From IMG/VR virus record IMGVR_UViG_3300023174_003433, positions 1 to 64,000 of that record: 64,000 bases of DNA; one strand, written 5' to 3'. Below, in pieces: positions 9,447 through 43,945 of the stretch. The notes under the pieces are model-generated. The model was not told the DNA's origin, did no database searches, and saw nothing but the letters and a program-made list of their open reading frames with translations. The position numbers were made by a program, and so were the translations under genes. This DNA comes from a virus. Position 1 is the stretch's first letter. Every line of letters starts with the position of its first letter.

Positions 9447-9459
9447 AATTTACTTTTGA

Positions 9460-9747: not shown

Positions 9748-9795
9748 AAAAACTCCATAGTAAATTAAAAAACCTTGCTTATTGCAAGTTCTCAC

Positions 9796-9824: not shown

Positions 9825-9828
9825 GCGT

Positions 9829-11663: not shown

Positions 11664-13375
11664 TTTGCCACCTGACTAAAATTGTTTTTCTTTTCAAACC
11701 GGATGATACTCCGGAACTTATCAAATAATTGGTCACCTTTATGGGAGATAACAAAAATATTTGTATCAGAACCCATTTCTTGTATTAGTTTTAAAAACTC
11801 CTCGGTGCCAACACCATCTAAACTAGAATCAAATACTTCATCAAGAATTAATAGATTCGTATTGGTACTATTCTTTAGCTTGGCAATCTGTCGCCATGTA
11901 AACAATAGAGCCAAGTCAATACGCATTTTCTCACCTTCTGAGAAATTGGCATAACCAAATTCGTCACGATGCCTTGATTTGATTGTTTCTTCAAACGATT
12001 CATTAATATTAAAATTCACAAAAAAATCCATGGCAGTCAAATACTTATTAATCAACTTATTCATAATAGGTAAGTATTGACGAATAATCTTTGTTTTGAT
12101 GCCAGTATCTTTTAATAAATTGCCAGCAAATTCATAGTATTGTTTTTCTGAGGAAAGTTCTTCTTGTTTGGTAATCAATGCAGCCAACTGAGTTCTAAGT
12201 TCCTTTAACTTAGCGTTTTCTTCTTCTAATGAATCTTTCTTGGTCGATAAATCACTAATTTCTTTCTTGAGTTTATCAATGTAAGAATGTGCTGCTGATA
12301 TGGTAGAATTATGTTTGATTATTTCGTTATTATGTGCTGAAATATGAGTATTGATTTCTTGTATCTTTTCAATACGATTATTGGTATCTTCGATTTGTTT
12401 TTCAATATCTTTTAAAGCGGTACCTACTTCACCTTTTGTTTCATTAAGTGTAACAATCTGTTGAGTTCTGAAATCGTGGTCAATACCTTGTTTACAAGTA
12501 GGACAATTATCATGGTCGTGATAGAACACCACTTCTTTATCAATCTTTTTTAAACGGGATTCAAGTTTAGATTCCAAGTGAATTAACTTGGTACTTTTTC
12601 TTTGTGTGGCCATTTGGTCGGCAATTTTACTCTGTAACACATCAATATGTTTTTGTATTAACATAATGTTTTTACCAAGAGTTTGGCATTGTGTTTCAGA
12701 ATCTTCTATTTCTTTTTGTTTTTTTTCAATCTCTGTATCGTTATGTTTTTTATGCTCTTCGATATTTTGTTTTTGAAAATTGATTCTTTCAGATGTTAAG
12801 TCCATCTCAAATTTGTTTTTGGTACTTGTATCTTTAATCAGAGCCATCTTTTCTTTAACTACGGCATTCATTGATGAGAAGATGCCGATGTCCAACAAAT
12901 CTTCAATGATTGATCTACGATCCGCTGGAGTTAATTGCATAAATGGAACAAACGAAGCCGAACCCAAAATAACAACTTGAGTGAACGATTTATAATTTAA
13001 TTTGAGAATAAATTTTTCTAAATGTTCTTGGTAATCTTTTGCCTTGGCATCTTGGTCAACCATGTTACCATTACAATATACTTCAAATGTATTTGGTTTA
13101 ATGCCACGAATTACTTTGTATTGTTTTTTACCAATAGAAAATTCAATCTCAACTATACAATCTTGTTGATTAATGGAATTAAGTAATTGTGGTTTATTGA
13201 TTTTACGAAATGGTTTACCAAATAAACCAAAACACAATGCATCCAGAATAGTGGACTTACCTGCACCATTGTTACCAATGATTAATGTGTTTGGTGACCT
13301 TTGTAAATCAATTTCGGTAAAATAGGTGCCGGTAGACAGAAAGTTTTTCCATCTAACTTTTTCAAAAATTATCAT
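11660..13375 (-). CDS. gp46: recombination endonuclease ATPase subunit (Rad50-like)
   Basis: GNNGAGKS, CPTC hook, FSEGEK, LDEVFD. Confidence 0.97.
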   Translation of the reverse strand: MIIFEKVRWKNFLSTGTYFTEIDLQRSPNTLIIGNNGAGKSTILDALCFGLFGKPFRKINKPQLLNSINQQDCIVEIEFSIGKKQYKVIRGIKPNTFEVYCNGNMVDQDAKAKDYQEHLEKFILKLNYKSFTQVVILGSASFVPFMQLTPADRRSIIEDLLDIGIFSSMNAVVKEKMALIKDTSTKNKFEMDLTSERINFQKQNIEEHKKHNDTEIEKKQKEIEDSETQCQTLGKNIMLIQKHIDVLQSKIADQMATQRKSTKLIHLESKLESRLKKIDKEVVFYHDHDNCPTCKQGIDHDFRTQQIVTLNETKGEVGTALKDIEKQIEDTNNRIEKIQEINTHISAHNNEIIKHNSTISAAHSYIDKLKKEISDLSTKKDSLEEENAKLKELRTQLAALITKQEELSSEKQYYEFAGNLLKDTGIKTKIIRQYLPIMNKLINKYLTAMDFFVNFNINESFEETIKSRHRDEFGYANFSEGEKMRIDLALLFTWRQIAKLKNSTNTNLLILDEVFDSSLDGVGTEEFLKLIQEMGSDTNIFVISHKGDQLFDKFRSIIRFEKKNNFSQVAK

Positions 13376-13391
13376 GCTATAATATTTTCAC

Positions 13392-13688
13392 TTATACAGT
13401 AATGTATTGTTTAGTATTTTCCGTATCTTGTATTAAAAGATTTTTCATGTGTTGAATTTGTTCTTTGCCTAGAGTGTTTTCGATCCATGGATAAAGAATT
13501 TGTTTTCCTTTTTCTTCAACTTCAGAATATAAAAGGTATTCCTTTTCTTCATATGTTAGATGGACAATGTATAATCTTTTATACTTATCTAAACAATGAA
13601 AAAAACGGATTTCTGTAACGACATTTTCTATTCCGTTTTTTGTTTCCGTACCAATTTGAGAAATTTCATAAGAAAAATTATAATTCAT
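13392..13688 (-). CDS. hypothetical protein
   Basis: 98-aa ORF inserted between gp47 and gp46. Confidence 0.6.
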   Translation of the reverse strand: MNYNFSYEISQIGTETKNGIENVVTEIRFFHCLDKYKRLYIVHLTYEEKEYLLYSEVEEKGKQILYPWIENTLGKEQIQHMKNLLIQDTENTKQYITV

Positions 13689-13689
13689 T

Positions 13690-14790
13690 TTATGCTTGTT
13701 CCGTGTTTAAAGCTTCGATATATAACTCTCGTAATACCGTTTTCAATCGGGTATTATCGATGTGTTCTTCTTTAATACCATCCACATACTTATTGATAAT
13801 AGTTATGGTATCTTCTGCTTGATTAACTATATCATCATCCAAACCTTCTGTCAAGTCAATTACATCTTCAGCAATGGTAATATCGACAGGATTAACATTG
13901 TATAGATTACCCATAAACTTATCAAATAGATAAGGATTTGTTTTATTGACTACCACAACTTTTACATATGTGTTGGTATATTTATCTAGGTTTTTACTGG
14001 TAATTTCCGTAATGCTTTGTTCCTTATCATCATACACGATACGATGAAACATCACATTAGGATTCTCAATAAACTCCAACTGGCGGCTAGATAAATCAAA
14101 AAGATGGAACCCTCTTGGATCATTATAATCTTGCCAAGTAAGTTCGTAAGGGTTACCCAAATACCAAATATTATCTGCTTGAGAACGATGGTGAAAATGA
14201 CCACTAAACACCATATCAAAACGCTTAAATAAATCACGGTCATATCCTTCATAATTTGGTATGCCACGATTCATGGAAAAACCAGCAATTTCTAAATGGC
14301 CCATACAAAGTGATGCATCTGTGCTTTCAATAACCTTTAGACTTTCATCATAATTATCGGCACAAATCCAAGGAACCATACAAATCTTTGTGTCGTAGAC
14401 CTGAATGTTTGTGGGTGAATCAATAACATTAATATTGTTGTATTCTTGTAGTAATAAATGTACTGAGTTTACATTGTTGGTATTTTTAAAATATGTGTCG
14501 TGATTACCAGCCAACATATGAACTTTAATGCCTTTGACATACAGTTTATCAAAGAACATTTCTCTTGCACGTTTTAATGTGAAAAAATTTATATATTTTC
14601 TACGGTCAAATGTATCACCCAAAATAAGAACAGTATCAATGCCGTTCTTATCAAGAATTGGAAAAAAAGTGTCCCGATAAAATCTTTCATAATATTCTAA
14701 GAAATGTAATGAATCATTACGAGCACCAAAGTGTTGGTCAGTAATAATTGCTACTTTAGTTGCGGTTTGGTTTTCTGTTGTCAACGTCAT
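13690..14790 (-). CDS. gp47: recombination endonuclease subunit (Mre11-like)
   Basis: TDQHFG, GDTFD, GNHD, SGHFH. Confidence 0.96.
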   Translation of the reverse strand: MTLTTENQTATKVAIITDQHFGARNDSLHFLEYYERFYRDTFFPILDKNGIDTVLILGDTFDRRKYINFFTLKRAREMFFDKLYVKGIKVHMLAGNHDTYFKNTNNVNSVHLLLQEYNNINVIDSPTNIQVYDTKICMVPWICADNYDESLKVIESTDASLCMGHLEIAGFSMNRGIPNYEGYDRDLFKRFDMVFSGHFHHRSQADNIWYLGNPYELTWQDYNDPRGFHLFDLSSRQLEFIENPNVMFHRIVYDDKEQSITEITSKNLDKYTNTYVKVVVVNKTNPYLFDKFMGNLYNVNPVDITIAEDVIDLTEGLDDDIVNQAEDTITIINKYVDGIKEEHIDNTRLKTVLRELYIEALNTEQA

Positions 14791-14917
14791 TATAATATTT
14801 AATTTCTAATACAGATTCGAGTGGTTGTTGGTTGGCAAACACAGTTGCCTCATGTAGTGTTTCAAACGATTTAAACCTTAAACTTCCTCCGCTCAAGGTA
14901 TAACTAACTTTGTACAT
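14756..14917 (-). CDS. 53-aa hypothetical protein
   Basis: MYKVSYTLSGGSLRFKSFETLHEATVFANQQ...; fills the gap between gp55 and gp47. Confidence 0.55.
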   Translation of the reverse strand: MYKVSYTLSGGSLRFKSFETLHEATVFANQQPLESVLEIKYYNDVDNRKPNRN

Positions 14918-30035: not shown

Positions 30036-31027
30036 AGTGTATTAGGAAATTCCGTTATTGTGGTGGTATATGTATAATCAACATTGGCGTTAGCTGTATT
30101 AGCCGTTGTGGGATTAGGCACAACAGTAATTGTGGCCATTTTTTCTGCTGGCACAACGTAAGAAGTAAATTGATAATTTGAATTTGTTTTTGTGCCTATA
30201 ATACGTGCATCAGATACAAAATTACCTTGTATGTTGGTCAAATGTAATATATTATTAGTCCACAAAACAACACGACCTGATGCCGTAGATTCTTGTGCTG
30301 AATATCCTTGATATACAATTTCACCGGTTTGATATTTTCCTGTGCCGGTATTGGCCATATTAAATTGAACAACATCAGTTGATGAAATATCATTAAATAT
30401 GTTTGTAATTGAAGTTCTAATTTGGCCTGTTGGTGTAGTTTTACCAAACACATAACCCTTAACAGTAAAACTTAAAGTCCAAATAATCATACGAGTTTCG
30501 GATTCTTTATCACCTTCATAAACGATGTCGTGTGTTGTACTATTTAACACGACAGGTATTTCTTTAACAATACCCATTTCAGGAATTAAATTTAATTTAA
30601 TGGTATAATCTGGTGCAAAGAATGGTAAAATATGTTCAATGATTTGTGTACCATCTTCTATGTTTCGTACATAGATGTAAAGATTAAAATCAAAATTATA
30701 TGGCACAGGATTATATTGTGAAATTAATCCGCCAGTTGTAGATGCAAATTGTTTAACATTAGTATTTTGTTTACGAGAAGAATCGTAAGAAAGGCCTGCC
30801 ATTTCAAATGACATTCTTGGTAATGCTATTTGAATTTTTTTACTTAAATCTGGATCATCTTCTAAACGTTTTACGTATAATTCTTTTGTTGCATACACAA
30901 TGGGCACCAACATACGTTCTGCTTCTGTTAAATCTGGATTATAACGAACTAGAGTAATGTTATCGAATAGGTTACCAAACCCAATGACCATCTTTCGAAT
31001 GATTCGGTGATATGTGGTATTTGACAT
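30032..31027 (-). CDS. gp15: tail sheath stabilizer / terminator
   Basis: FGNLFDNI, LPRMSFE, QIIEHILPFF. Confidence 0.93.
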   Translation of the reverse strand: MSNTTYHRIIRKMVIGFGNLFDNITLVRYNPDLTEAERMLVPIVYATKELYVKRLEDDPDLSKKIQIALPRMSFEMAGLSYDSSRKQNTNVKQFASTTGGLISQYNPVPYNFDFNLYIYVRNIEDGTQIIEHILPFFAPDYTIKLNLIPEMGIVKEIPVVLNSTTHDIVYEGDKESETRMIIWTLSFTVKGYVFGKTTPTGQIRTSITNIFNDISSTDVVQFNMANTGTGKYQTGEIVYQGYSAQESTASGRVVLWTNNILHLTNIQGNFVSDARIIGTKTNSNYQFTSYVVPAEKMATITVVPNPTTANTANANVDYTYTTTITEFPNTL

Positions 31028-31920
31028 TAAATTTCTCCAAACGGATTGGTCTCAGAGAAATCTATAATTGCGTCTGCTTGAGTATTAATATACTTGTTGT
31101 CATAACTTTCATTATAAGAATTATCTAATTGTGTATCATATGAAGTTAATATGTAACGTGCATTACTTGATGCACCAATAATTACAACATTATTTGTAAA
31201 CTCACCAGAAATATTACTGATCATTAGAGAATTGGCCGATGGTGTCCAAGCTTGTACGATTGCCACAGAAGTGGCATTGGCTTCAGTTTGGTCTGCGGCT
31301 TGATATACTGTTTCGTTTATTATATAATTATTTGCATTACCAGTTTTTGCGCCAGTAACCAACTTAATCATGTAACCAGAATCATTAACAATCATATCAA
31401 TATCGTTAACACCAGTATCAATAATTTCTTGAGCATACTTAAATTTCTCAAGGCGTAACTCATAAAAATATGGTTGTTTACGACCCAATGTATGAAAATC
31501 TTTTGCTTGCTCAGTAAATGTTATTTCATATAATTCACCAGTACCATTTAAAAATGGCACATAGACTAAATCACCTTCCCTTGGTCGTGTGAATGTATTT
31601 TGTGGAACTCGTTGTTGGAATGTCCTACGAGAAACAGATACCGTTACCACATTTTTAATTTCTAGGCCAAACTTAGAAAAGAACTCTTGTTGACCTTGGT
31701 AATCCATTACGTCACCAGAAAGGTACATTTCTAATGGAAAAGCTGATTTGAATTTTTTAACTGGATCTTCACCATATAATATATCTCTATCTGCCGGATT
31801 TTCTATAGGCAAATAGAATGCATCAAAACCCATGATTTGCATGGATTCAACAATCAGATCCTCTATTACTCTTTGTTCGGCAGTAGAGTTGTAGTTATTA
31901 AAATAAACCGATGTTGGAAT
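31027..31920 (-). CDS. gp14: neck protein gp14 (probable ATT start at 31920)
   Basis: frame extends 26 codons above the ORF-track ATG: IPTSVYFNNYNSTAEQRVIEDLIVES; PREGDLVY motif. Confidence 0.88.
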   Translation of the reverse strand: MPTSVYFNNYNSTAEQRVIEDLIVESMQIMGFDAFYLPIENPADRDILYGEDPVKKFKSAFPLEMYLSGDVMDYQGQQEFFSKFGLEIKNVVTVSVSRRTFQQRVPQNTFTRPREGDLVYVPFLNGTGELYEITFTEQAKDFHTLGRKQPYFYELRLEKFKYAQEIIDTGVNDIDMIVNDSGYMIKLVTGAKTGNANNYIINETVYQAADQTEANATSVAIVQAWTPSANSLMISNISGEFTNNVVIIGASSNARYILTSYDTQLDNSYNESYDNKYINTQADAIIDFSETNPFGEI

Positions 31921-31921
31921 T

Positions 31922-32497
31922 TTAGGTACCTATCTTTCTTTTCATTCTTGGTTTAAATGCTCTACCAAGAAACCATCCGGTTGGAATTGTATCTCCATTT
32001 TTAATTTTTTTTGAATCTGTGTTATTGTTTATCCAAATAGAGCCAAAACTAGGATTTTTTTGGCCAGTTCTTGTTCCTATCATTGATTTTTTTATATTTA
32101 ACCTATGTTCTTTTGATTTTGGTTTTTTGTGTTTGTTTTTTGTTTCTTCTGAAAGTTTCCAAGTTTTGCCTTTGGAACCATTTGTTAATTTCCTAACTTT
32201 CAAAAATTGATTTTTTTTAATTGTTTTTTCTTCTTCGGTTAAATTATTCCAAAATTCTTTACCTTTTTTAGATAAATGGTTTTTTATTGATTCTTGATTC
32301 ATTATACCTTTAAGTATATCTTCTTTACCAATTAAACCGGCCAGTCCTTGCCAAGCATAATAATCTTGATATCTTCCTTGTTCTTCCCAAAGCAATTTAT
32401 GAGCTTCGGCGTGTTCTTCAACAGTAAGTTCTATTAAGTTTGATGGATCATCAGTACCACCAGCGTGTTTTGGAATAATATGGTGTTTATGTTTCAT
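31922..32497 (-). mobile_element. free-standing HNH homing endonuclease with NUMOD3-like tail
   Basis: HKHHIIPKHAGGTDDPSNLIELTVEEHAEAH; LSEETK; fills the gp13-gp14 junction with 1-nt gaps. Confidence 0.88.
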
Positions 32498-33312: not shown

Positions 33313-34146
33313 TTATTGTATTCCAAGACTTTTCCTTATTTTGGTTGCGGAAATATCAGTAATTGATTTATCAAAAGACTCTTGTTCAATTTTATAACCT
33401 ACATCACGACCATAAGTAATATTTACAATGTTTGGTACCACCTGAATCTCATATTGACCTTGAAACAACGGATCCAAATCTCTACGGATGTATGATTTAA
33501 CTTGTTCAATGGCAAAAGGATTAGAACCTTGCCATCCTTGACAGTCACGGATTTGAATAACCACTTGACCAGTTTTGGCAATGGCTCGCTCAAATAAAGC
33601 TCGATGGCCTTCATGCCATGGTTGCCAACGACCTAACATCTGTACAGTTTCTTTCTGCCAGTCAAATGTTGGACGCCTACGATTCTCAATGATATGGTTA
33701 CCAATAAACTCAGCCCATTTTTCAGCATTTTGTTCTGTCACACGGAAGTCATATACTTCTGGTGGAATGAACGCTTTATTGGTATCTTCAAATCGACCTT
33801 TTTCAATTGTGTCCATCCAAATAGTCCAATCGGCTTTAAAGTTGTTTCTCATCTCAACCAATGGCGCCACAAAATCACAGATAACATAATCACCGCCAGC
33901 CTCTAAAGCAAACTGTGCCATTCTTAGAGATTGGCGAATACGACCAGCATCTGAGAAATCCCAATCATTATATTTTTTACGAACTTCATCAGCATTAAAC
34001 CAAGTGACTTGAGCATTAAAGCCTGTAATTGGCAACATCTCAGCAATATTATTCGTTGTACCGTTTTTTTCAAGGTATTTTTTTAAGGCTTCTGCCATAA
34101 ATGTTTTTCCAGAACCTGGTAATCCCATAATCAAAATCTTTTTCAT
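33313..34146 (-). CDS. adenylylsulfate-kinase-like domain fused to HxGH nucleotidyltransferase
   Basis: GLPGSGKT, NADEVR, DFSDAGRIRQ; C-terminal GRWQPWHEGH and ISATKIR. Confidence 0.8.
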   Translation of the reverse strand: MKKILIMGLPGSGKTFMAEALKKYLEKNGTTNNIAEMLPITGFNAQVTWFNADEVRKKYNDWDFSDAGRIRQSLRMAQFALEAGGDYVICDFVAPLVEMRNNFKADWTIWMDTIEKGRFEDTNKAFIPPEVYDFRVTEQNAEKWAEFIGNHIIENRRRPTFDWQKETVQMLGRWQPWHEGHRALFERAIAKTGQVVIQIRDCQGWQGSNPFAIEQVKSYIRRDLDPLFQGQYEIQVVPNIVNITYGRDVGYKIEQESFDKSITDISATKIRKSLGIQ

Positions 34147-34156
34147 TTGTATTCCT

Positions 34157-34894
34157 TTATTGAGGTTTGCATAATAAATTATTTCCTACTACCTTATAAT
34201 CATATTCATACTGATCTAAAAATTGCTTGATATCATCTATAATAGTTTTTCTGTTGTCGCAGTGTTCCACAAATATAATAGGTAGGTGCTTTTTGATTGT
34301 ATTGGAGCCTCCAACTAAAACATCTAAGTCCATACCTTCTACATCTATCTTTAGCAGATGCACTTTAGGTATATTATAGTGTTCTAAAAACCAATCAATT
34401 GTGTGTATGTCAACAACGACTTTATTGTTTGTTTTTTCGGTAATAATATCTTCTACTAAACTAAAAGTACCAAAATCATTTTTTCTAAAGTAATTAGGTT
34501 CTTCAAATTCAATTTTAGTATTATCTTTACCTAATCCAATGTTGTATGGATATACATTATATAGATTGTTTATAGAAGCATTTCCACACAGCATTTTAAA
34601 CACTTCTCTTTGAGGCTCAAAAGAATATATTTTTCCTTGAGGAAAGGCTCTGGACATCCAAGTGGTAAACGTTCCTATATTGGCACCAATGTCAAATATT
34701 ATAGGTTCAGAATATTCTTTAATTGATTCATAACAATTGAATGCTTCAATCGTAGAAGTATTTCCATGATCTAATAACCATTGGCCATGACCAACTTGTT
34801 CACTATTACAATCAAATCGATTTACAATCATTAAACCGTGGTCACAACTCAGTAACACATTTCGGTGAACTTTATCACCTATATTAAAAACCAT
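34157..34894 (-). CDS. FkbM-family methyltransferase
   Basis: FDIGANIG, SFEP, LKIDVEG. Confidence 0.9.
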   Translation of the reverse strand: MVFNIGDKVHRNVLLSCDHGLMIVNRFDCNSEQVGHGQWLLDHGNTSTIEAFNCYESIKEYSEPIIFDIGANIGTFTTWMSRAFPQGKIYSFEPQREVFKMLCGNASINNLYNVYPYNIGLGKDNTKIEFEEPNYFRKNDFGTFSLVEDIITEKTNNKVVVDIHTIDWFLEHYNIPKVHLLKIDVEGMDLDVLVGGSNTIKKHLPIIFVEHCDNRKTIIDDIKQFLDQYEYDYKVVGNNLLCKPQ

Positions 34895-34895
34895 T

Positions 34896-35528
34896 CTATT
34901 CTTTCAACTTTTTAAAAGCCACTTGAAAAGAATCTGGTAAATGTATTAATTCTATTTTATGCCAATTACATTGTATAAACATCTCAATGCCCATTCTTGG
35001 AGAGAGTTGTACAGGAGCACTACCATGTTCATCAACAAGTTTCCAGCCTATAGAATCGTCACATAACATTACTCCGCCTACTGGCAGTAATCTCCAAGAT
35101 AGCATCATATCTTCTAGAACAGCAGCAGATGTATGGTCACCATCAACAAAAATAAATTCAGCTGTTTCTTTTTGATGAATCAACTCGACTAAAGCCTCAT
35201 AACTGTATTTGTTAATGTATGTTACATTGCCTACACACTTACTTAAATTATATTCAAACGTTCTTTTAATTGTTTTAAAATCAAAATTTGGATTATCATT
35301 TAATGTGGTGTGTGGATCAATGGCATATATTTTAAATTTATCATTATGAATTTTACCAAACTCTGAAACCCAAAATGTGGTTATTCCTTCAAAACAACCA
35401 ATTTCTATCATTGTGTTTGGTACACCAAACTTTTCAAATAAAAATTTAATATTCGTTTGAGTTCTTTCTCTACCCATATCGACTGTTGAAATATACATAT
35501 CAATTATTCTTTTTATGCCAATCAGCAA
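34896..35528 (-). CDS. class I SAM methyltransferase (Methyltransf_24-like)
   Basis: EIGCFEG, AIDP, FVDGDH, GGVMLCDD; true start may be ATG ~35498. Confidence 0.82.
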   Translation of the reverse strand: MLIGIKRIIDMYISTVDMGRERTQTNIKFLFEKFGVPNTMIEIGCFEGITTFWVSEFGKIHNDKFKIYAIDPHTTLNDNPNFDFKTIKRTFEYNLSKCVGNVTYINKYSYEALVELIHQKETAEFIFVDGDHTSAAVLEDMMLSWRLLPVGGVMLCDDSIGWKLVDEHGSAPVQLSPRMGIEMFIQCNWHKIELIHLPDSFQVAFKKLKE

Positions 35529-36141
35529 ATCTTCCTGGCTTATGCACTCTGATAAAAATATTTACACTTTCACAGACATTCGCCATAGTATTTAAATTAA
35601 TGTCCATCTGTTTTGGTGCCAGCATACCATCTTGCTGTTGTTGTAACCAATAGCCAACCATATTGTAAGTCACATCATAAACTTCCAAATCTACGTCATG
35701 GTATAATCCAAATGTACTATCACTTAATTTTTTAGCAATAGATTCAAAATTTACTTTTTGGTCAAACATTTTAAAAGTTTTGGCAGTCAATGGCCTAACA
35801 TGAGTGTAATCGTCCCAAAACAAATCACACCGATGATGTGGTACATTGATAAACCATTCTGCTTGATCTGCACTTACTCGATACATTTCTTTAATAATAT
35901 TGGTAAAAACTTTTGGATCTTGACCTAAATGTTCCAAAACATTATCTGCTGTAATTTTTTCAAAGAAGTTATCTTCATATGGCCAAGGAGTTATTTCAAA
36001 ATCTAATACTTCATCAGGATTACATTTGGCTTCTACATCTACATTCCAATGGTCGTTTAATTTTTTAAATCCACAACCCATGTTTAGTTTTTTATTTTCT
36101 GGTGTCATAATATATTCCTTTATTAAATCCAAGCATTCCAA
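35500..36141 (-). CDS. class I SAM methyltransferase-like protein
   Basis: LNMGCG, NVD, VLEHL, EMYRV, DDYTH; true start likely at MTPENK. Confidence 0.8.
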   Translation of the reverse strand: MECLDLIKEYIMTPENKKLNMGCGFKKLNDHWNVDVEAKCNPDEVLDFEITPWPYEDNFFEKITADNVLEHLGQDPKVFTNIIKEMYRVSADQAEWFINVPHHRCDLFWDDYTHVRPLTAKTFKMFDQKVNFESIAKKLSDSTFGLYHDVDLEVYDVTYNMVGYWLQQQQDGMLAPKQMDINLNTMANVCESVNIFIRVHKPGRFADWHKKNN

Positions 36142-36920
36142 AATATTTCACGATTATACTGTTCGTAAATATCAAGTCCAAGATACTCTACACAATTAAC
36201 TGTGGTACGATCAAGTGATGGCTTAATCTTGTGTAAGTTAGGCAAACCAATTGCCAAATCATTATACACTTCTGTTTGAACAATCTTTTCAAAATCATGT
36301 TCAAACTTTGGTAGTTCTAAAAATTCATAGATACGTTTAGTTTGGCTTTTTGGACTATTGCAAAAACGATTGTAATCAATAAAAAGAAAACGATCCAAAT
36401 AACCCATTGTAATTGCATCTTTAATATTTCTATGAGATAATCCCATTGCGCCTTCTGGACCAGCATAGTAATAAGCTCTTGAAGCAATATTGGATCCTTC
36501 TCTTAAAGAAGAATCTGCTTTGGTAAAAAACAAAGGATTCTCTTTTCTAAGTTTTTCAAAAGAAGTTAAAATTTCGGCTGGGTTTCTAACACAAACAATA
36601 ATTTTAACTTTGCGATCCAAAATTGCTTCGACTTGTGGTAGTAGTGGAATCCATCCACGGTCTTTATCAACAATAATAGGCTTATCAATATGAGAATAAT
36701 ATCCCTGTAATACTGATTTTAAAACTCCAACTTTGGCATCTGTATTATTATATTCTTGATTTTGTTCCATACTAGACCAAGAAGCATTAATACTACCAAA
36801 TATAGAAGATAAAGAACTTACGGATTCTCCGTGAACTTCTGAATTTTGTTTGAGTATGTTTGTTATGAGAGTGGAACCTGATCTTGGGAGACCTGCCACA
36901 AAATGTATGGTTTTTTCCAT
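36123..36920 (-). CDS. sulfotransferase family protein
   Basis: GLPRSGSTL (5'-PSB) and VRNPAEILTS (3'-PB) motifs. Confidence 0.85.
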   Translation of the reverse strand: MEKTIHFVAGLPRSGSTLITNILKQNSEVHGESVSSLSSIFGSINASWSSMEQNQEYNNTDAKVGVLKSVLQGYYSHIDKPIIVDKDRGWIPLLPQVEAILDRKVKIIVCVRNPAEILTSFEKLRKENPLFFTKADSSLREGSNIASRAYYYAGPEGAMGLSHRNIKDAITMGYLDRFLFIDYNRFCNSPKSQTKRIYEFLELPKFEHDFEKIVQTEVYNDLAIGLPNLHKIKPSLDRTTVNCVEYLGLDIYEQYNREIFWNAWI

Positions 36921-36970: not shown

Positions 36971-36978
36971 TATTTATA
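36971..36978 (-). promoter_or_regulatory. late promoter TATAAATA
   Basis: exact consensus upstream of the sulfotransferase. Confidence 0.7.
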
Positions 36979-38035
36979 CGCTTATTTTTTCAGCTTTTTG
37001 TTTTTTAGTTTTTTGAGGAAAACGTTCTTTTAATTCATTAGAAACTTTTTGAAATGTATCTGTCCAATCTCCAAATTTAGTTTGCCTAAAAACTTTAGTG
37101 GTGTTTTGATACCAAGGACTATGATCTCCTCCATAAGCCCAAACATGATATGGTAACAATGGCACAATTACCCATGTGGGTTTACCCATTGCAGAAGCAA
37201 GATGAGCAATACTAGTACAAGAAGTAATAACTAAATCTAAATTAGCAATACATGCAGCTGTATCTTCCCAAGAAATTATTAAATGTTGAAGATCGGATAT
37301 TGCTTCAGGTAATTCTTTTACATCTGTATCTCTTTGCAAACTATAGAATTGTATATGAGGAAAATCTTTGTGTAAATTAATTAATTTTTCTGCAGGAAAA
37401 ATACGAAATTGCTGATGTTCAAAAAGAGGGCTACCACTCCAACGAATACCAACTTTTATTTTTTCTGTGTTTAACATTGTTTTCCAAAGATCGACACTTT
37501 CGTTTTTAGCAAAAATGTAAGGCTCGTTTGGTAAATTATCAAATTCATGTCCAAATAACCAGCTAGCACTAAATCCTGGAATCCAAAAATCATGATATGT
37601 TTGAGATACTTGGTCTAAAGTGATACATTCTTTAACACCAGGAATCCGTAGAAAGAGGGGGTGCAATAATTTTTCACAACACATAATACATTTACCGCCT
37701 CGTTTCCAAATTTCGGTGGCAAATCTAGCGTAAATCATTTGGTCGCCAAAACCACACTCCATATTTAAAATGACAGTTTTACCTTTTAAATCACTTTGAT
37801 CCCAAATTGGCTTAGTAGTGTTAATTTTACCACTACCATAAACTTTGAGTGCTCGTCCATTTTCAAGACATTGAAATCCTTCTTGTAATTTTCCTTGATT
37901 AATAAGAAACCAACCACGATTAAATTTTGCTTTTGGATCTGTAGGATCTAAAGCTTCCAATTCTTCAGCCAATTTCCAAGCTTCTTCAAATCTTCCTCTT
38001 ATCATCAAATTCAATTGCTGATCAATCATATGCAT
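36974..38035 (-). CDS. TPR-containing GT-B (GT9-like) glycosyltransferase
   Basis: N-terminal TPR helices; ECGFGDQM, KVGIRWSG, DTAACIANLDLVIT, HLASAMGKPTW, SPWY. Confidence 0.82.
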   Translation of the reverse strand: MHMIDQQLNLMIRGRFEEAWKLAEELEALDPTDPKAKFNRGWFLINQGKLQEGFQCLENGRALKVYGSGKINTTKPIWDQSDLKGKTVILNMECGFGDQMIYARFATEIWKRGGKCIMCCEKLLHPLFLRIPGVKECITLDQVSQTYHDFWIPGFSASWLFGHEFDNLPNEPYIFAKNESVDLWKTMLNTEKIKVGIRWSGSPLFEHQQFRIFPAEKLINLHKDFPHIQFYSLQRDTDVKELPEAISDLQHLIISWEDTAACIANLDLVITSCTSIAHLASAMGKPTWVIVPLLPYHVWAYGGDHSPWYQNTTKVFRQTKFGDWTDTFQKVSNELKERFPQKTKKQKAEKISV

Positions 38036-38083: not shown

Positions 38084-41000
38084 TTATGAAATTCCTACTG
38101 TATGAGCATCACCACCAGCAGATACAGCAGTCCATGAGCTGGATCCTATTTGTACTGGACTGGATCTACTGGTAAGTGTACCATCTCCTAATCGGCCACT
38201 ACCATTATATCCCCACGTAAACAATGTACCACCAGAACGTATAGCTGCTGTATGTACACCACCAGCAGATACAGCAGTCCATGAGCTGGATCCTATTTGT
38301 ACTGGACTGGATTTACTGTTAATGGATCCACTTGTACCATCTCCTAATTGGCCTTGACCATTATATCCCCATGTAAACAAGGTACCACCAGAACGTATAG
38401 CTGCTGTATGATTACCACCAGCAGATACAGCAGTCCATGAGCTGGATCCTATTTGTACTGGACTGGATCTATTGATAAGTGTACCATCTCCTAATCGACC
38501 GACACTATTAGATCCCCATGTAAACAAGGTACCACCAGAACGAATAGCTGCTGTATGAATACTACCAGGACCAGCAGCCACAGCAGTCCATGAGCTGGAT
38601 CCTATTTGTACTGGACTGGATTTTTGAGTACCAAAACCACCAGTACCATCTCCTAATTGGCCATTACTATTAAGTCCCCACGTAAACAAAGTACCACCAG
38701 AACGAATAGCGACTGTGTGACTAAGACCACCAGCCACAGCAGTCCATGAGCTGGATCCTATTTGAACTGGACTGGATCTAGATGTGCTTGTACCATCTCC
38801 TAATTGGCCATATGTATTATTTCCCCATGTAAACAAGGTACCACCAGAACGAATAGCTGCTGTATGATCACGACCAGCACCTACAGCAGTCCATGAGCTG
38901 GATCCTATTTGAACTGGACTGGATCTACTAGTAGTTGTACCATCTCCTAATTGGCCAGCATTAACTCCCCATGTAAATAATCTTCCATCAGAACGAATAG
39001 CTGCTGTATGAGTACCACCAGCAGCCACAGCAGTCCATGAGCTGGATCCTATTAATAAGGGAGAAGGTAGAATAACCACAACATTATTGCCTACTGTTAT
39101 TGGACTGGATTTATTAGTTAATGATCCACCTGTACCATCTCCTAATTGGCCAGATTGATTATATCCCCATGTAAACAATATATTATCAGAACGAATAGCT
39201 GCTGTATGACCTCTACTTACGCTACTATTACCACCACCAGACACAGCAGTCCATGAGCTGGATCCTATTTGTATAGGACTGGATCTACTGACAATTGAAC
39301 TATTTCCTAATTGGCCTTGACCATTATATCCCCATGCAAACAGAGTACCACCAGAACGAATAGCTGCTGTATGCCTACCTCCAGCAGACACAGCAGTCCA
39401 GGAACTAGATCCTATTTGTACTGGCCTAGATTTAGCAACAGCTGTACCATCTCCTAATTGGCCACCAGTATTACCTCCCCATGTAAATAAGTAGCCATCA
39501 GAACGAATAGCTGCTGAATGAGATAAACCAGCAGTTACAACAGTCCATGACATAGATGCAAAATCGGATCCAATTTGTACTGGACTGGATTTACTGTTAA
39601 TGGCTCCACTTGTACCATCTCCTAATTGGCCATGAAAATTATATCCCCATGTAAATATTGTACCACCAGAACGTATAGCTGCTGTATGAGCATCACCACC
39701 AGACACAGCAGTCCATGAGCTGGATCCTATTTGTACTGGACTGGATCTATTGGTAAGTGTACCATCTCCTAATCGGCCATCACTTCTTTGAGAATTATTT
39801 CCCCATGTAAACAAATATCCATCAGAACGTATAGCTCCAGTATGATACCTACCAGCACCTACAGCAGTCCATGAGCTGGATCCTATTTGTACTGGACTGG
39901 ATTTGAGAGCAGTTGTACCATCTCCTAATTGGCCAGCACTATTAAATCCCCATGTAAATAGTGTACCACCGGAACGAATAGCTACTGCATGGTATTGGCC
40001 ACCAGCCACAGCAGTCCAAGAGCTAGATCCTATTTGTACTGGACTAGATTTAGAAACATTCGTACCATCTCCCAATTGGCCAAAAATACCTTGGCCCCAT
40101 GTAAACAACGTACCCCCAGAACGAATAGCTGTTGAATGCCGGCGCCCAGCAGCCACAGCAGTCCATGAACTAGATCCTATTTGAACTGGACTGGAGCTAC
40201 TAGTAGTTGTACCATCTCCTAATTGGCCATTATTATTATAACCCCATGTAAACAAGTAACCATCAGAACGAATAGCTGCTGTATGATCATTTACACTACC
40301 AGCAGCTACAGCAGTCCATGAGCTGGATCCTATTTGTACAGGACTGGAGCTACTAGTAGTTGTACCATCTCCTAACTGGCCATTGTTATTAAATCCCCAC
40401 GTAAATAATGTGCCACCAGATCGAATAGCTACTGTATGCTTAGCACCAGTACTCACAGCAGTCCATGAACTGGATCCAATTTGAACTGGACTGGATCTAG
40501 AAGTGGTTGTACCATCTCCTAAACATCCAGGATTATTATAACCCCATGTAAATAAATATCCATCAGAACGAATAGCTGCTACATGCGCATAACCAGTAGA
40601 CACAACAGTCCAACTCGCAGAACTTGCAATTACAACTGGACTTGATTGCACTATATTAATGAATCCTATTTGTACAGGACTGGATCTATTGGTAAGTGTA
40701 CTATCTCCCACTTGGCCCGCAGTATTAATTCCCCATGTAAATAATAAATTATCAGAACGAATAGCTCCCGCATGATAACCACCAGTACTCACAGCAGTCC
40801 ATGAGCTGGATCCTATTTGTACAGGACTGGAGCTACTAGTAGTTGTACCATCTCCTAACTGGCCACCGCTATTAAATCCCCACGTAAATAATGTGCCACC
40901 AGATCGAATAGCTGCTGTGAAAGCTGCGCCAGCATTTATTACAGTCCAGGAACTAGATCCTATTTGAATCGGACTGGATTTGCTATTAGCATCACCGGAT

Positions 41001-43450
41001 GTACTATCACCTATTTGTCCTCTGTAATTACCTCCCCATGTAAATAAGGTACCACCAGAACGAATAGCTGCTGTATGAGAACCACCAGCAGATACAGCAG
41101 TCCATGAGCTGGATCCTATTTGAACTGGACTGGATAGTGAAACAAGATTATTTCCAACCGTTACTGGACTGCTTTGCCTGAACCGTGTGCCAAAACTAAT
41201 TTGTCCTAATTGGCCATAATTATTAATTCCCCATGTAAATAAGGCACTATAAAAACCACTAGAACGAACAGCTGCTGTATAATATCGGCCAGCAGACACA
41301 GCAGTCCATGAACTAGATCCTATTTGTACTGGACTGGATTTATCAGCAGTTGTACCATCTCCCAATTGGCCTTGGGCATTTCGACCCCATGTAAACAAAG
41401 TACCACCAGAACGAATAGCTGTTGTATGATCGTTACCACCAGACACAGCAGTCCATGAGCTGGATCCTATTTGAACTGGACTGGATCTAGATGTGCTTGT
41501 ACCATCTCCTAATCGACCTTGGCCATTAGATCCCCATGTAAACAAGTAACCATCAGAACGAATAGCTGCTGTATGATAAGCACCAGCATTTACAGCAGTC
41601 CATGAACTAGATCCTATTTGAACCGGACTGGATTTAGCAACAGCTGTACCATCTCCTAATTGGCCATAATTATTTTGGCCCCATGTAAATAATAAATTAT
41701 CAGAACGTATAGCAATTCCATGTCGAGCACCAGCATCTACAACAGTCCATGAGCTGGATCCTATTTGTACAGGACTGGATCTATTGGTGGTACCACCATC
41801 TCCTAACTGACCAGTACTATTATATCCCCATGTAAACAAGGTACCACCAGAACGAATAGCTGCTGTATGAGATAAACCAGCAGTTACAACAGTCCAAGAG
41901 CTGGATCCAATTTGAACTGGACTGGACCTATTAAAACCAGAAGTCCCATCACCCACTTGTCCTCTGTAATTACCTCCCCATGCAAACAAATATCCATCAG
42001 AACGAATAGCTGCTGTATGAGTACCACCAGCAGCCACAGCAGTCCAAGAGCTGGATCCAATTTGAACTGGACTAGATTTACCAACAATTGTACTATCTCC
42101 TAATTGGCCTTGGGTATTTCGACCCCATGTAAATAATAAATTATCAGAACGAATAGCTGCTGTATGGTAACCACCTACAGACACAACAGTCCAGCTAGAT
42201 AAATTTGTTAGTGACTCATTTCCAATTTGGCCCGCACTTCCAAGACCCCATGTAAACAAGTATCCAATATTATTAATAGCTGCTGTATGAGTACCACCAG
42301 CACTTACAGCAGTCCATGAGCTGGATCCTATTTGAACTGGACTAGATTTATCAGCAGTTGTACCATCTCCTAATTGGCCTTGAAGATTATATCCCCATGT
42401 AAATAAGGTACCACCAGAACGAATAGCAGTTGTATGAAAAAAACCAGCATCTACAACAGTCCATGAGCTGGATCCTATTTGTACAGGACTGGATCTATTG
42501 GTAGTTGTATTATCTCCTAATCGACCGTTTCCATTACCTCCCCATGTGAACAAGGTACCACCAGAACGAATAGCAACTGTATGAACATAACCAGCACTCA
42601 CAGCAGTCCATGAGCTAGAGCCTATTTGTACTGGACTGGATCTAGTGGTAGTTGTACTATCTCCTAATTGACCATAATTATTTCGTCCCCATGTAAATAA
42701 TAAATTATCGGAACGAATAGCAGCTGTATGAGAACCATTAACAGACACAACAGTCCAGCTAAGCAAAGCTGTTGTATCTCCTTGCCCCAACTGGCCAGAA
42801 CCATTAAGTCCCCATGTAAATAAGGTACCACCAGAACGAACAGCCATTGTATGAAGAGCACCAGCAGCTACAGCAGTCCATGAGCTGGATCCTATTTGTA
42901 TTGGACTGGATTTATTGGTAAGTGTACCATCTCCTAATTGGCCTTGACCATTATATCCCCATGTAAACAAGTAACCATCAGAACGAATAGCTGCTGTATG
43001 ATTACCACCAGCAGCCACAGCAGTCCATGAACTGGATCCTATTTGTACTGGACTAGATTTATTGAAAGTTGTACTATCTCCTAATTTGCCATATTGATTA
43101 AATCCCCATGTGAACAAAGTACCACCAGAACGAAGAGCAGCTGTATGTCTAAATCCAGCAGACACAGCAGTCCATGAGCTGGATCCAATTTGAACTGGAC
43201 TGGATCTAGTGGTAGTTGTATTATCACCTAATACGCCATTATTATATCCCCATGTAAACAAGTAACCATCAGAACGAATAGCTGCTGTATGAGAACCACC
43301 AGCACTTACAGCAGTCCAACTGGATAAAGGTGTTGTTACAGTTGTTCCTAACTGGCCATAAGCATTATTTCCCCATGTGTATAAAAATTTATTCTCGGCT
43401 GGAGCAGCTGCAGAAGCACCTTTAGCTAAAAGTTGTTCAATGAATAACAT
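38084..43450 (-). CDS. giant RCC1/BLIP-II repeat beta-propeller protein (putative adhesin)
   Basis: 35 blade-equivalents of WTAVSAGxxHTAAIRSxGxLFTWGxNxxGQLGDxTxxxxSSPVQIGSSS. Confidence 0.92.
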   Translation of the reverse strand: MLFIEQLLAKGASAAAPAENKFLYTWGNNAYGQLGTTVTTPLSSWTAVSAGGSHTAAIRSDGYLFTWGYNNGVLGDNTTTTRSSPVQIGSSSWTAVSAGFRHTAALRSGGTLFTWGFNQYGKLGDSTTFNKSSPVQIGSSSWTAVAAGGNHTAAIRSDGYLFTWGYNGQGQLGDGTLTNKSSPIQIGSSSWTAVAAGALHTMAVRSGGTLFTWGLNGSGQLGQGDTTALLSWTVVSVNGSHTAAIRSDNLLFTWGRNNYGQLGDSTTTTRSSPVQIGSSSWTAVSAGYVHTVAIRSGGTLFTWGGNGNGRLGDNTTTNRSSPVQIGSSSWTVVDAGFFHTTAIRSGGTLFTWGYNLQGQLGDGTTADKSSPVQIGSSSWTAVSAGGTHTAAINNIGYLFTWGLGSAGQIGNESLTNLSSWTVVSVGGYHTAAIRSDNLLFTWGRNTQGQLGDSTIVGKSSPVQIGSSSWTAVAAGGTHTAAIRSDGYLFAWGGNYRGQVGDGTSGFNRSSPVQIGSSSWTVVTAGLSHTAAIRSGGTLFTWGYNSTGQLGDGGTTNRSSPVQIGSSSWTVVDAGARHGIAIRSDNLLFTWGQNNYGQLGDGTAVAKSSPVQIGSSSWTAVNAGAYHTAAIRSDGYLFTWGSNGQGRLGDGTSTSRSSPVQIGSSSWTAVSGGNDHTTAIRSGGTLFTWGRNAQGQLGDGTTADKSSPVQIGSSSWTAVSAGRYYTAAVRSSGFYSALFTWGINNYGQLGQISFGTRFRQSSPVTVGNNLVSLSSPVQIGSSSWTAVSAGGSHTAAIRSGGTLFTWGGNYRGQIGDSTSGDANSKSSPIQIGSSSWTVINAGAAFTAAIRSGGTLFTWGFNSGGQLGDGTTTSSSSPVQIGSSSWTAVSTGGYHAGAIRSDNLLFTWGINTAGQVGDSTLTNRSSPVQIGFINIVQSSPVVIASSASWTVVSTGYAHVAAIRSDGYLFTWGYNNPGCLGDGTTTSRSSPVQIGSSSWTAVSTGAKHTVAIRSGGTLFTWGFNNNGQLGDGTTTSSSSPVQIGSSSWTAVAAGSVNDHTAAIRSDGYLFTWGYNNNGQLGDGTTTSSSSPVQIGSSSWTAVAAGRRHSTAIRSGGTLFTWGQGIFGQLGDGTNVSKSSPVQIGSSSWTAVAGGQYHAVAIRSGGTLFTWGFNSAGQLGDGTTALKSSPVQIGSSSWTAVGAGRYHTGAIRSDGYLFTWGNNSQRSDGRLGDGTLTNRSSPVQIGSSSWTAVSGGDAHTAAIRSGGTIFTWGYNFHGQLGDGTSGAINSKSSPVQIGSDFASMSWTVVTAGLSHSAAIRSDGYLFTWGGNTGGQLGDGTAVAKSRPVQIGSSSWTAVSAGGRHTAAIRSGGTLFAWGYNGQGQLGNSSIVSRSSPIQIGSSSWTAVSGGGNSSVSRGHTAAIRSDNILFTWGYNQSGQLGDGTGGSLTNKSSPITVGNNVVVILPSPLLIGSSSWTAVAAGGTHTAAIRSDGRLFTWGVNAGQLGDGTTTSRSSPVQIGSSSWTAVGAGRDHTAAIRSGGTLFTWGNNTYGQLGDGTSTSRSSPVQIGSSSWTAVAGGLSHTVAIRSGGTLFTWGLNSNGQLGDGTGGFGTQKSSPVQIGSSSWTAVAAGPGSIHTAAIRSGGTLFTWGSNSVGRLGDGTLINRSSPVQIGSSSWTAVSAGGNHTAAIRSGGTLFTWGYNGQGQLGDGTSGSINSKSSPVQIGSSSWTAVSAGGVHTAAIRSGGTLFTWGYNGSGRLGDGTLTSRSSPVQIGSSSWTAVSAGGDAHTVGIS
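38090..43385 (-). repeat. coding tandem repeat, about 150-nt unit
   Basis: near-identical blocks such as cagcagtccatgagctggatcctatttg and ccaccagaacgaatagctgctgtatg recur throughout. Confidence 0.95.
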
Positions 43451-43945
43451 TTAATTTTCTAATGATGGCCAATTGACTTGAGCAATATTCACAACCTCAT
43501 TTTCTGAATATACTTGTATAATATCTCTTAGAGCTTGTCGATATATAATCCATTTATTTTTGGTGTTTTCATCAAATAAATTTTGTACATCTTGTAATTG
43601 AGTCCAATCAGAACTAACTAACAATTCATTTCTTTTTTTTCTTAGTTCTTCTATAAATCTATATTTTAAAGTAGAGAATTCTTCAACAGGTTCTGGTTGT
43701 CTTTCAGTTATAATAATACTTTCTAAAACATCATTCTCTCTAATCTCATAATTATATCCACTTACATAATGGGTTAAATCATTCCACGTTTCATTTTGTT
43801 TAGTTACAGGATACCAACCTACAGATTTTAAAAAAGGCAAATCATCAGCAGCCAAATTTAGTCCGCTTACATTTCTCCAATTATTAGGTAGTAAGTCATA
43901 CTGACCTGTAATTTCATTATTTTCTATGTGTACCCAATTTGCCAT
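43451..43945 (-). CDS. tail fibre assembly chaperone-like protein
   Basis: LRKKRNELLVSSDWTQL...WIIYRQALRDI...VNWP. Confidence 0.82.
   Translation of the reverse strand: MANWVHIENNEITGQYDLLPNNWRNVSGLNLAADDLPFLKSVGWYPVTKQNETWNDLTHYVSGYNYEIRENDVLESIIITERQPEPVEEFSTLKYRFIEELRKKRNELLVSSDWTQLQDVQNLFDENTKNKWIIYRQALRDIIQVYSENEVVNIAQVNWPSLEN

Follow-up and report, generated by a model that had tools for sequence, protein, structure and literature searches.

Beta-propellers are a textbook example of folds that grow by repeat amplification, and proteins containing several propellers are normally drawn as beads on a string. An exception is the DDB1-like triple WD40 propeller Trm734, in which two-level nesting by strand topology has been solved (PMC6847430). 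Its chain starts with strand d7 of BPC, and BPA lacks its d7 until after the complete BPB, which sits between c7 and d7 of BPA. Among RCC1-like propellers, UBR5 contains an interrupted domain in which one blade has only three strands and carries an insertion of about 270 residues, with a second insertion of more than 220 residues lying further on (PMC10830417). The inserted domains are UBA and small beta-barrel domains rather than further propellers, and there is no recursion. Near-identical RCC1 blades amplified within one gene have been described in highly repetitive RCC1/BLIP-II propellers and in giant RCC1-only proteins, which are mostly bacterial with some viral members and are predicted to be extracellular binders (PMC9218822; bioRxiv 10.1101/2023.11.21.568195). 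We found no paper on RCC1 nesting or on propeller nesting of the depth considered here; PMC9218822 contains none of the words nested, inserted or insertion, and the propeller and RCC1 passages of the bioRxiv paper mention no nesting, although supplementary files were not included and may show such arrays.

Here, we analyzed a gene from an uncultured marine T4-like phage, located in a window of 64,000 nucleotides (positions 1 to 64,000 of IMG/VR record IMGVR_UViG_3300023174_003433). The open reading frame at 38084-43450 (- strand, as are all features described below) translates without stops to 1788 aa and consists only of RCC1 repeats. It scored 1481.1 bits against the Pfam RCC1-like domain PF25390 (cut-off 150) and 1073.9 bits against RCC1 PF00415 (cut-off 21.7) in 32 stretches. 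Splitting at the W-T-[AV]-[VI] anchor yielded an N-terminal piece (aa 1-44), 34 repeats, of which 19 are exactly 49 aa, and a 16-aa C-terminal half, corresponding to 35 blades. A first-pass annotation based on the sequence alone had proposed that these blades form five seven-bladed propellers inserted into one another, because three repeats lack their outer strand, three later sites carry an extra one, and an odd linker follows repeat 25. All of these marks were confirmed and lie within about 20 nt of the positions given in that annotation.

The outer strand of SSPVQIG type is missing after the GQ(L/I)G turn in the N-half (aa 35-44, nt 43319-43348), repeat 4 (aa 223-231, nt 42758-42784) and repeat 8 (aa 411-419, nt 42194-42220). 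Two outer strands in a row were found at three sites. Repeat 15 has its own strand at aa 760-766, followed by NNLVSL and a second strand at aa 773-779 (nt 41105-41152). Repeat 18 has strands at aa 923-929 and 936-942, separated by FINIVQ (nt 40613-40663, with SSAS following the extra strand), and repeat 28 has strands at aa 1448-1454 and 1462-1468, separated by NNVVVIL (nt 39038-39088). After repeat 25, a 7-residue linker, SDFASMS, replaces the usual SSS (nt 39548-39568).

To evaluate whether this arrangement could arise by chance, the 3 "open" and 3 "close" marks were shuffled over the 34 junctions of the window's protein. A balanced parse with every domain a multiple of 7 was obtained in 345 of 2,000,000 trials (p about 1.7e-4). 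The analysis was then extended to 221 homologues, of which 115 carry at least one entry joint. Across their 7247 junctions, the distance from the WG motif to the next blade showed a main mode at 24-25 and two smaller modes near 14 and 38. Of 137 innermost bracket pairs, 78 enclose exactly 7 blades, and 107 of 191 clean closed domains hold exactly 7, against a shuffled mean of 8.3 (sd 2.9, maximum of 20 in 1000 shuffles). A blade number divisible by 7 was found for 65 of 94 gap-free proteins. It should be noted that the automatic parse is crude: 84 of the 191 closed domains are not 7, 94 opens stay unclosed and 262 closes are unmatched, many of the latter being long linkers between plainly sequential rings, as in homologue P0083. 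Homologues change by whole sevens at the same loops. An independent metagenome contig, L001 (IMGVR_UViG_3300009183_003113), encodes an 86% identical, colinear protein with the same marks and the same parse. In another close relative, L003, 49 blades with 6 opens and 6 closes parse into seven rings, six levels deep, with every level summing to 7.

Structure prediction agreed in part with the nested arrangement; domain memberships were read from aligned ranges and predicted contacts, not from a full-length model. AlphaFold2 prediction of aa 142-1301 gave a mean pLDDT of 87.4 and closed rings exactly at repeats 9-15 and 19-25 rather than in register from the start of the construct. In this model, repeats 9-15 (aa 420-766, nt 41153-42193) form the innermost complete seven-blade ring, aligning over protein 415-768 to whole UVR8 (4dnv_A; Z 56.3, rmsd 1.4 A, 347 of 370 residues). 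The strand that follows, at aa 773-779, was predicted as a strand (model 631-637, pLDDT about 65-75) and is taken to complete the blade of repeat 8. Repeats 19-25 (aa 947-1294, nt 39569-40612) aligned over protein 931-1261 to HERC2 RLD2 (7q40_C; Z 48.1, rmsd 1.4 A, 326 aligned), and WD40 propellers aligned from 934 to about 1270. The extra strand after repeat 18 (model 793-799) was the first aligned element of this ring for HERC2, RPGR, RCC1 and WD40 propellers. AlphaFold2 uses it as the closing strand of ring 19-25, not as the missing strand of blade 4, and on that reading the side branch sits in tandem with ring 5-18 inside the same loop.

The two outer split rings were assessed by a complex prediction of residues 1282-1788 with residues 1-231. 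The median score was 0.83 (best of 3 controls, 0.01). That mark was reached by 58 of 80 solved complexes and 2 of 110 mismatched pairs. The runs agreed in at least 78% of contacts, with a partner pLDDT of at least 84. Repeats 1-4 (aa 45-231, nt 42758-43318) and repeats 26-28 (aa 1302-1454, nt 39089-39547) were joined through contacts of 1302-1312 in repeat 26 with 195-210 in repeat 4, aa 219-220 of repeat 4 also contacting repeat 26, and of 1417 in repeat 28 with 50, 55 and 57 in repeat 1. In the outermost ring, comprising the N-half (aa 1-44, nt 43319-43450) and repeats 29-34 with the C-terminal half blade (aa 1472-1788, nt 38087-39037), residues 1781-1788 touched the N-half strand, and W26 touched 1784 and 1755. 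Residues 1285-1294 and 1452-1473 also lie in the interface with the N-terminal piece, the latter including the strand at aa 1462-1468 that is taken to complete the N-half blade. It should be noted that both constructs could close only the rings they contained, so that ring closure at 19-25 and the 4+3 assembly were the only complete solutions on offer, and that split propeller halves tend to pass complex prediction by likeness to solved RCC1 structures.

The remaining ring, composed of repeats 5-8 (aa 232-419, nt 42194-42757) and repeats 16-18 (aa 783-929, nt 40664-41104), is inferred by elimination and from high pLDDT (86-96 and 80-95, respectively). None of the 100 structure-match rows listed in two searches aligned to it, although each row shows only its best ring. 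The whole three-ring homologue P0111 was also folded, yielding a pLDDT of 78.1 and a pTM of 0.44. This model was weak exactly at the joints, with pLDDT under 50 for the N-half and both extra strands, and its structure matches covered only the last ring (residues 744-1093). The part of P0111 equivalent to repeats 29-34 plus the C-terminal half blade aligned to RLD structures at Z 45.8. Repeat-to-repeat identity matrices in protein and DNA showed no diagonal or register that would date duplications or fix the unmarked ring.

Taken together, all five ring memberships proposed in the first-pass annotation fit our evidence, and we consider it likely that the 35 blades fold into five seven-bladed propellers arranged as a tree rather than a string. 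In the proposed topology, the outermost ring is closed by the N-terminal strand, the outer strand returning at aa 1462-1468 and the C-terminal two strands. Ring 1 (repeats 1-4 + 26-28) is spliced into the loop between the third and fourth strand of that closing blade. The same loop of ring 1's fourth blade carries both ring 2 (repeats 5-8 + 16-18), which holds ring 3 (repeats 9-15) in its own fourth blade, and ring 19-25. Each child ring enters through a short linker that replaces the parent's outer strand and leaves through a 6-7-residue linker followed by that missing strand, so that two short tethers hold every child against its parent.

The genomic context was examined to infer a function. 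The upstream neighbor (nt 43451-43945, 164 aa) belongs to the phage tail(-fiber) assembly chaperone family (PF16778, E 3.4e-13, 49.7 bits, cut-off 26.6; PHROG tail-fiber assembly hits). The RCC1 gene follows a tail-fiber gene and this chaperone gene, with virion structural proteins among its neighbors, and lies upstream of neck, sheath, portal and capsid genes; the same order is found in cyanophage BUCT-ZZ01. The downstream neighbor (nt 36974-38035, 353 aa) has no confident family, but a homologue lies beside the RCC1 gene in all 9 related loci checked. Against L001, dN/dS was 2.26 at 8 loop positions and 0.22 in the framework. In L003, the genes downstream of the RCC1 gene are 94-99% identical, yet the RCC1 gene has two more rings. 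We therefore infer, from context and selection only, that the protein may be a virion-associated host-binding protein of a T4-like marine myophage. Each ring would offer one face of fast-evolving loops (repeat positions 8-9, 25-28 and 36-38), and nesting would pack five such faces into a compact branched body whose two chain ends meet in the outer ring. These would lie next to a conserved N-terminal helix motif (MLFIEQLL...), shared by 21 of the 221 homologues, that may anchor the protein.

Alternative explanations were considered. Five sequential propellers, with the missing and extra strands being merely three-stranded and five-stranded blades or long linkers, appear very unlikely. Plain sequential RCC1 arrays do exist in the same homologue set, as P0083 has a long linker after every 7th blade and P0053 and P0126 have no marks at all, and ring 5-8+16-18 was not seen directly. 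However, AlphaFold2 did not close rings in register from the construct's start, a missing strand followed exactly 7, or 7+7, blades later by an extra strand recurs across homologues far above chance, and the N-terminal 231 residues are predicted to pack against the C-terminal 507. It is even less likely that near-identical repeats were misassembled. The repeats are on average 77% identical in DNA and the record is a metagenome contig estimated at 69% complete, but this identity is low enough to assemble, the frame is open throughout, and L001, from another sample, is colinear over all 1788 residues.

Within a nested arrangement, the ring without entry and exit marks could be another run of seven among repeats 19-28, for example 20-26 or 22-28, closed by the preceding outer strand. 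The strand marks alone allow any such run, the second branch of ring 1 in L003 sits after its fifth blade, and neither construct could form another split, as one ended at repeat 25 and the other began at aa 1282. We regard this as unlikely, since the only abnormal blade-to-blade linker in repeats 19-28 follows repeat 25 and is conserved as G-S-D-(F/L)-x-x-x-S-W in L001, and AlphaFold2 uses the strand just before repeat 19 to close the ring. Moreover, ring 19-25 diverges from L001 as a block, with 59-76% identity per repeat and a dS of 0.50 against 0.14 elsewhere, and the block of low identity and high dS runs from about aa 926 to about 1333, close to this ring. A nested protein that is not a receptor-binding adhesin is also rather unlikely but cannot be dismissed so readily. 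It could be a structural decoration of the neck or tail, a scaffold modified by neighboring enzymes, or a protein acting inside the host. A conserved downstream cassette (sulfotransferase, two methyltransferases and an APS-kinase-like gene) travels with RCC1 genes in several loci, and eukaryotic and Legionella RCC1 proteins act inside cells (bioRxiv 10.1101/2023.11.21.568195). On the other hand, location in the late structural block directly after tail-fiber and chaperone genes, diversifying selection on surface loops and a change in ring number between near-identical phages are hallmarks of host-recognition genes.

More tentatively, whole propellers may act as plug-in modules. A reusable joint, consisting of an entry linker that replaces the parent's outer strand and an exit of the form SSP-I/V-TVGNN + linker + returning strand, could allow phages to add, remove or swap complete seven-blade rings by recombination among near-identical repeats, changing the number and geometry of host-binding faces without breaking the fold. 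The difference in ring number between the window and L003 and the separate history of ring 19-25 support this possibility. If confirmed by a structure, the architecture would provide a natural rule for building rigid branched proteins from one repeat, useful for protein design, and a new mode of receptor-binding-protein evolution in abundant marine phages. It would also warn that domain parsers and repeat annotators mis-segment such proteins. The bracket rule gives a simple sequence test for the design.

Compared with known systems, the protein shares its repeat family and predicted seven-bladed fold with UVR8, HERC2 RLDs, RPGR, RCC1 and BLIP-II. All 31 solved relatives found by sequence are single propellers of 370-536 residues, and, in the absence of an activity assay, nothing links this protein to a nucleotide-exchange or photoreceptor role. 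UBR5 chains aligned to our models over chain range 30-870 with about 260 residues aligned. Like phage tail fibers and receptor-binding proteins, the gene lies in the tail-fiber module, has hypervariable surface loops and varies in modular fashion between close relatives, and a seven-bladed propeller is known in phiKZ gp131, which matched at Z 18.5. However, it has no coiled-coil or beta-helix shaft and no recognized fiber domain. The likeness to Trm734 is one of topology, not of family, as the blades are of RCC1 type and WD40 propellers matched only at Z about 16-17. The protein appears to use the same third-to-fourth-strand loop as Trm734, a parent blade lacking its outer strand until after a complete inserted propeller; in the window, the three missing and three extra strands bracket 7, 7+7 and 28 blades. 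Trm734 has three rings and two levels, with insertion only in the closing blade, whereas the arrangement proposed here has five rings over four levels in the window and seven over six levels in L003, insertions lie mostly after blades 3-5 (27 of 30 insertions into closed parents), and whole rings are gained and lost between close relatives.

The region 38084-43450 corresponds exactly to a single open reading frame on the minus strand, which encodes 1788 residues without a stop. A Pfam search revealed nothing but RCC1: the RCC1-like domain PF25390 scored 1481 bits and the RCC1 repeat PF00415 scored 1074 bits in 32 stretches, whereas a weak fifth hit, NfeD (31.4 bits), had no matched stretch of its own. 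Splitting the protein at the first-strand anchor yielded an N-terminal piece of 44 residues, 34 repeats, of which 19 are exactly 49 residues long, and a C-terminal piece of 16 residues. The N-terminal piece contains a short helix motif followed by only the third strand and the GQLG turn of a blade, and the C-terminal piece contains only the first two strands. The seven irregular sites proposed by the first-pass annotation are all real and were located within about 20 nt of the positions it had assigned. The outer strand is missing after the N-half, after repeat 4, and after repeat 8; a second outer strand follows repeats 15, 18, and 28; and a 7-residue linker replaces the usual three serines after repeat 25. 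Counting the strands gave 35 of each of the four kinds, which is enough for exactly 35 blades.

To evaluate whether this arrangement could have arisen by chance, the three "open" (missing outer strand) and three "close" (extra outer strand) marks of the window were shuffled over its 34 junctions. A balanced parse in which every domain is a multiple of seven was obtained in 345 of 2,000,000 trials. A 49-position repeat model was then built from the window and applied to the window protein and 220 long homologues, which represented the best 120 listed in each of two searches yielding 7613 and 7843 hits among 8000 scored candidates. Over 7247 junctions, the distance from the WG motif to the next blade showed a main mode at 24-25 residues and two smaller modes, near 14 (no outer strand) and near 38 (two outer strands). 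When these were read as brackets, 78 of 137 innermost pairs enclosed exactly seven blades. In a stack parse, 107 of 191 cleanly closed domains held exactly seven, whereas shuffling the labels within each protein resulted in a mean of 8.3 (sd 2.9; maximum of 20 in 1000 shuffles). Sixty-five of 94 gap-free proteins had a blade number divisible by seven. It should be noted that the parse is crude: 84 of 191 closed domains did not hold seven blades, 94 opens stayed unclosed, and 262 closes were unmatched. Many of the latter are simply long linkers between sequential rings, as in homologue P0083, which has one after every seventh blade. The family therefore builds both plain strings and nested forms, with 115 of 221 proteins containing at least one entry joint.

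A scan of viral contigs yielded 15 related loci. One of these, L001, encodes a colinear protein that is 86% identical and has the identical bracket string, which rules out mis-assembly. The protein of a second locus, L003, starts with the same N-terminal motif and ends with the same half blade but has 49 blades. Both by eye and by the repeat model, it has six entries and six exits, and every level sums to seven, giving seven rings, six levels deep. The three-ring proteins P0128 and P0135 share the first two entry points of the window, after the N-half and after blade 4, and carry one ring where the window carries three. Insertions into closed parents lie after blades 3-5 in 27 of 30 cases, roughly opposite the parent's own entry and exit. 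In L001 and L003, the six genes downstream of the RCC1 gene are 94-99% identical in protein to those of the window. In contrast, the RCC1 protein is 86% identical in L001, and in L003 it is about 60% identical and has two extra rings. The upstream fiber genes are also variable, at 62-99% identity across the two loci. This is the gain or loss in units of seven at the same loops that the first-pass annotation had proposed as a check. Four further contigs (L004, L006, L013, and L014) share an identical 4385-codon open frame (1719-14873) with about 82 detected RCC1 blades and a related N-terminal motif, in which the parser found many unmatched long junctions.

Ring membership was evaluated by structure prediction, using aligned ranges and reported contacts. 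AlphaFold2 was applied to residues 142-1301 (repeats 3-25; model numbering is protein numbering minus 141) with a 40-row alignment, resulting in a mean pLDDT of 87.4 and a pTM of 0.50. Whole UVR8 superposed on protein residues 415-768 (Z 56.3; rmsd, 1.4 A; 347 of 370 residues), a range that is exactly repeats 9-15 up to their own last strand. HERC2 RLD2, RPGR, RCC1, and RCC2 superposed on residues 931-1261, with a Z of 48.1, an rmsd of 1.4 A, and 326 residues for HERC2 RLD2. Some thirty unrelated seven-blade propellers, mostly WD40 repeats plus integrin alpha subunits, started at 934-938 and ended at about 1270. The model thus closes ring 19-25 with the extra strand after repeat 18 as the outer strand of its last blade, leaving repeat 25's own last strand disordered (pLDDT about 31). 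Both extra strands in this stretch were predicted as strands, at a pLDDT of about 65-80. Repeats 5-8 and 16-18 had a pLDDT of 80-96, but no listed alignment fell on them, and their shared ring is therefore inferred by elimination. A prediction of the whole three-ring homologue P0111 gave a weaker model that was uncertain at precisely the joints.

To assess the two outer split rings, residues 1282-1788 and residues 1-231 were supplied as two chains to a complex prediction (ESMFold2). The three runs scored 0.83, 0.82, and 0.84, whereas the best of three controls scored 0.01. That mark was reached by 58 of 80 solved complexes and by 2 of 110 mismatched pairs, although these counts hold only roughly because we supplied our own alignment. 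The runs agreed in at least 78% of contacts, and the pLDDT of the partner was at least 84. The model supports binding but does not show it. Split halves of a fold with solved relatives tend to pass such a prediction by likeness to solved structures, and both this and the AlphaFold2 construct offered only complementary pieces. The reported contacts are those which the nested model requires. The first strand of repeat 26 (1302-1312) lies against repeat 4 (195-210, 219-220), repeat 28 (1417) lies against repeat 1 (50, 55, 57), and the C-terminal half blade (1784, 1755) lies against W26 of the N-half. Both the last strand of repeat 25 (1285-1294) and the region of the returning strand (1452-1473) are in the confident interface.

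The alternative of five propellers on a string is not favored by these data, as the rings closed by AlphaFold2 are not in register from the start of the construct. A different question is which seven blades form the unmarked ring. Strand marks alone would allow any run of seven among repeats 19-28, provided that the ring borrows the strand in front of it. However, the only abnormal blade-to-blade linker follows repeat 25, and this linker is conserved in L001. Furthermore, identity to L001 drops to 59-76% per repeat in repeats 19-25, compared to mostly 80-100% elsewhere, with the low-identity DNA block extending from about residue 926 to about 1333. Synonymous divergence is 0.50 in this ring (39548-40663, minus strand; residues 930-1301) and 0.14 in the rest of the gene, which points to a separate history of the ring as a module. 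Elsewhere, patches of 100% identity alternate with patches of 70-85%, and the overall pattern looks like ring-level module exchange plus gene conversion among repeats. We therefore favor 19-25, and another split remains possible but unlikely.

Overall, the interpretation of the first-pass annotation, that propellers were recursively inserted into loops of other propellers, is supported, and we consider the nested architecture likely, although the ring formed by repeats 5-8 and 16-18 rests on elimination. The strand-level detail differs from that annotation. AlphaFold2 makes ring 19-25 a tandem partner of ring 5-18 inside the loop of blade 4; in that reading, the last strand of repeat 25 returns to blade 4, and the ring is not an insertion between blades 4 and 5. 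As for how the nesting would work, we infer that a child ring starts at its innermost strand, about nine residues after the GQLG turn of the parent, and ends with its own outer strand, often of the form SSP-I/V-TVGNN, after which a 6-7-residue linker leads to the missing strand of the parent. The child would therefore be held by two short tethers at the rim of the parent's variable face, and, because the whole chain returns to its starting ring, both termini would sit together. If only whole sevens fold, unequal recombination among repeats, which are about 77% identical in DNA, would be filtered to ring-sized steps.

The window is part of a 117,727-base IMG/VR virus record that is estimated to be 69% complete and contains this single RCC1 gene. 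Genes on the same strand include those for large terminase, tail sheath, portal, scaffold, major capsid, and neck proteins. The capsid protein is at best 65% identical to those of Methylophilales phage Melnitz and Pelagibacter phages Mosig and HTVC008M, and the virus is an uncultured marine T4-like myophage. The RCC1 gene starts one base after the stop of a gene for a 164-residue tail(-fiber) assembly chaperone (PF16778; E 3.4e-13), which itself follows tail-fiber-like and virion structural genes, and it lies upstream of the neck genes. The cultured cyanophage BUCT-ZZ01 has the same order: tail fiber, a small homologous protein, and then a 700-residue RCC1 protein. Directly downstream of the RCC1 gene, a 353-residue protein (36974-38035, minus strand) has no confident family, its only hits being a weak TPR match and a faint heptosyltransferase-like match (E 0.0085). 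A homologue (43-97% identity) lies near the RCC1 gene in all 9 related loci checked, and within 200 nt downstream in 7 of them, including BUCT-ZZ01. It may be a dedicated partner, such as a modifier or chaperone. Between the RCC1 gene and the neck genes, a cassette (33313-36920, minus strand) encodes a sulfotransferase (PF00685; E 9.5e-16), two methyltransferases (PF13578; FkbM PF05050), an unassigned 213-residue product, and an APS-kinase-like protein. The sulfotransferase accompanies RCC1 genes in 6 of 9 loci (L001, L002, L003, L009, L010, and L015), and its target could, purely speculatively, be the serine-rich blade junctions. A 191-residue open reading frame (31922-32497, minus strand) with a borderline HNH endonuclease match (21.2 bits; cut-off, 21.4) is adjacent to the gene with the T4 neck-protein (PF11649) match at 31027-31842.

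Among the 19 canonical repeats, variation is concentrated at positions 8-9, 25, 27-28, 36, and 38, which are the loops after the first and third strands and, judging from general propeller geometry, probably lie on one face of each ring. Compared to L001, 43% of these positions differ, whereas 8.7% of the others do, and dN/dS is 2.26 at these positions and 0.22 in the framework. Together with the change in ring number between near-identical phages, this is the pattern of a host-recognition protein. We therefore read it as a virion-borne, multivalent binding protein, a role that we consider only somewhat more likely than not. The N-terminal motif M-L-(L/F)-I-E-Q-L-L (43411-43450, minus strand; residues 1-13), predicted to be helical in P0111 at low confidence, heads 21 of the 221 homologues sampled, across proteins of 3 to about 8 rings, and is a candidate anchor, virion-attachment signal, or assembly signal. 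Some nested RCC1 proteins, namely, those of locus L010 (residues 1-75) and homologue P0082, carry a different N-terminal domain of about 75 residues in its place. The same propeller tree may therefore be mounted on different adaptors.

We found no paper describing this architecture in a literature search that did not cover most subscription journals or any supplementary files. A study of repetitive propellers (PMC9218822) contains none of the words nested, inserted, or insertion, and the propeller and RCC1 passages that we read in a study of giant RCC1 genes (bioRxiv 10.1101/2023.11.21.568195) mention no nesting. The blades themselves are ordinary RCC1-like blades, and all 31 solved relatives found by sequence are single propellers. 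UBR5 has an RCC1-like propeller with a three-stranded blade that carries a large insertion of non-propeller domains (PMC10830417). Nesting of propellers by strand topology is already known from Trm734, in which BPA lacks its seventh outer strand until after the complete BPB and the chain begins with the last strand of BPC (PMC6847430). What is new in the architecture inferred here is the recursion of the same fold to four levels (six in L003), the use of RCC1 blades rather than WD40, the insertion into internal blades, and the turnover of whole rings at an inferred phage host-recognition locus.
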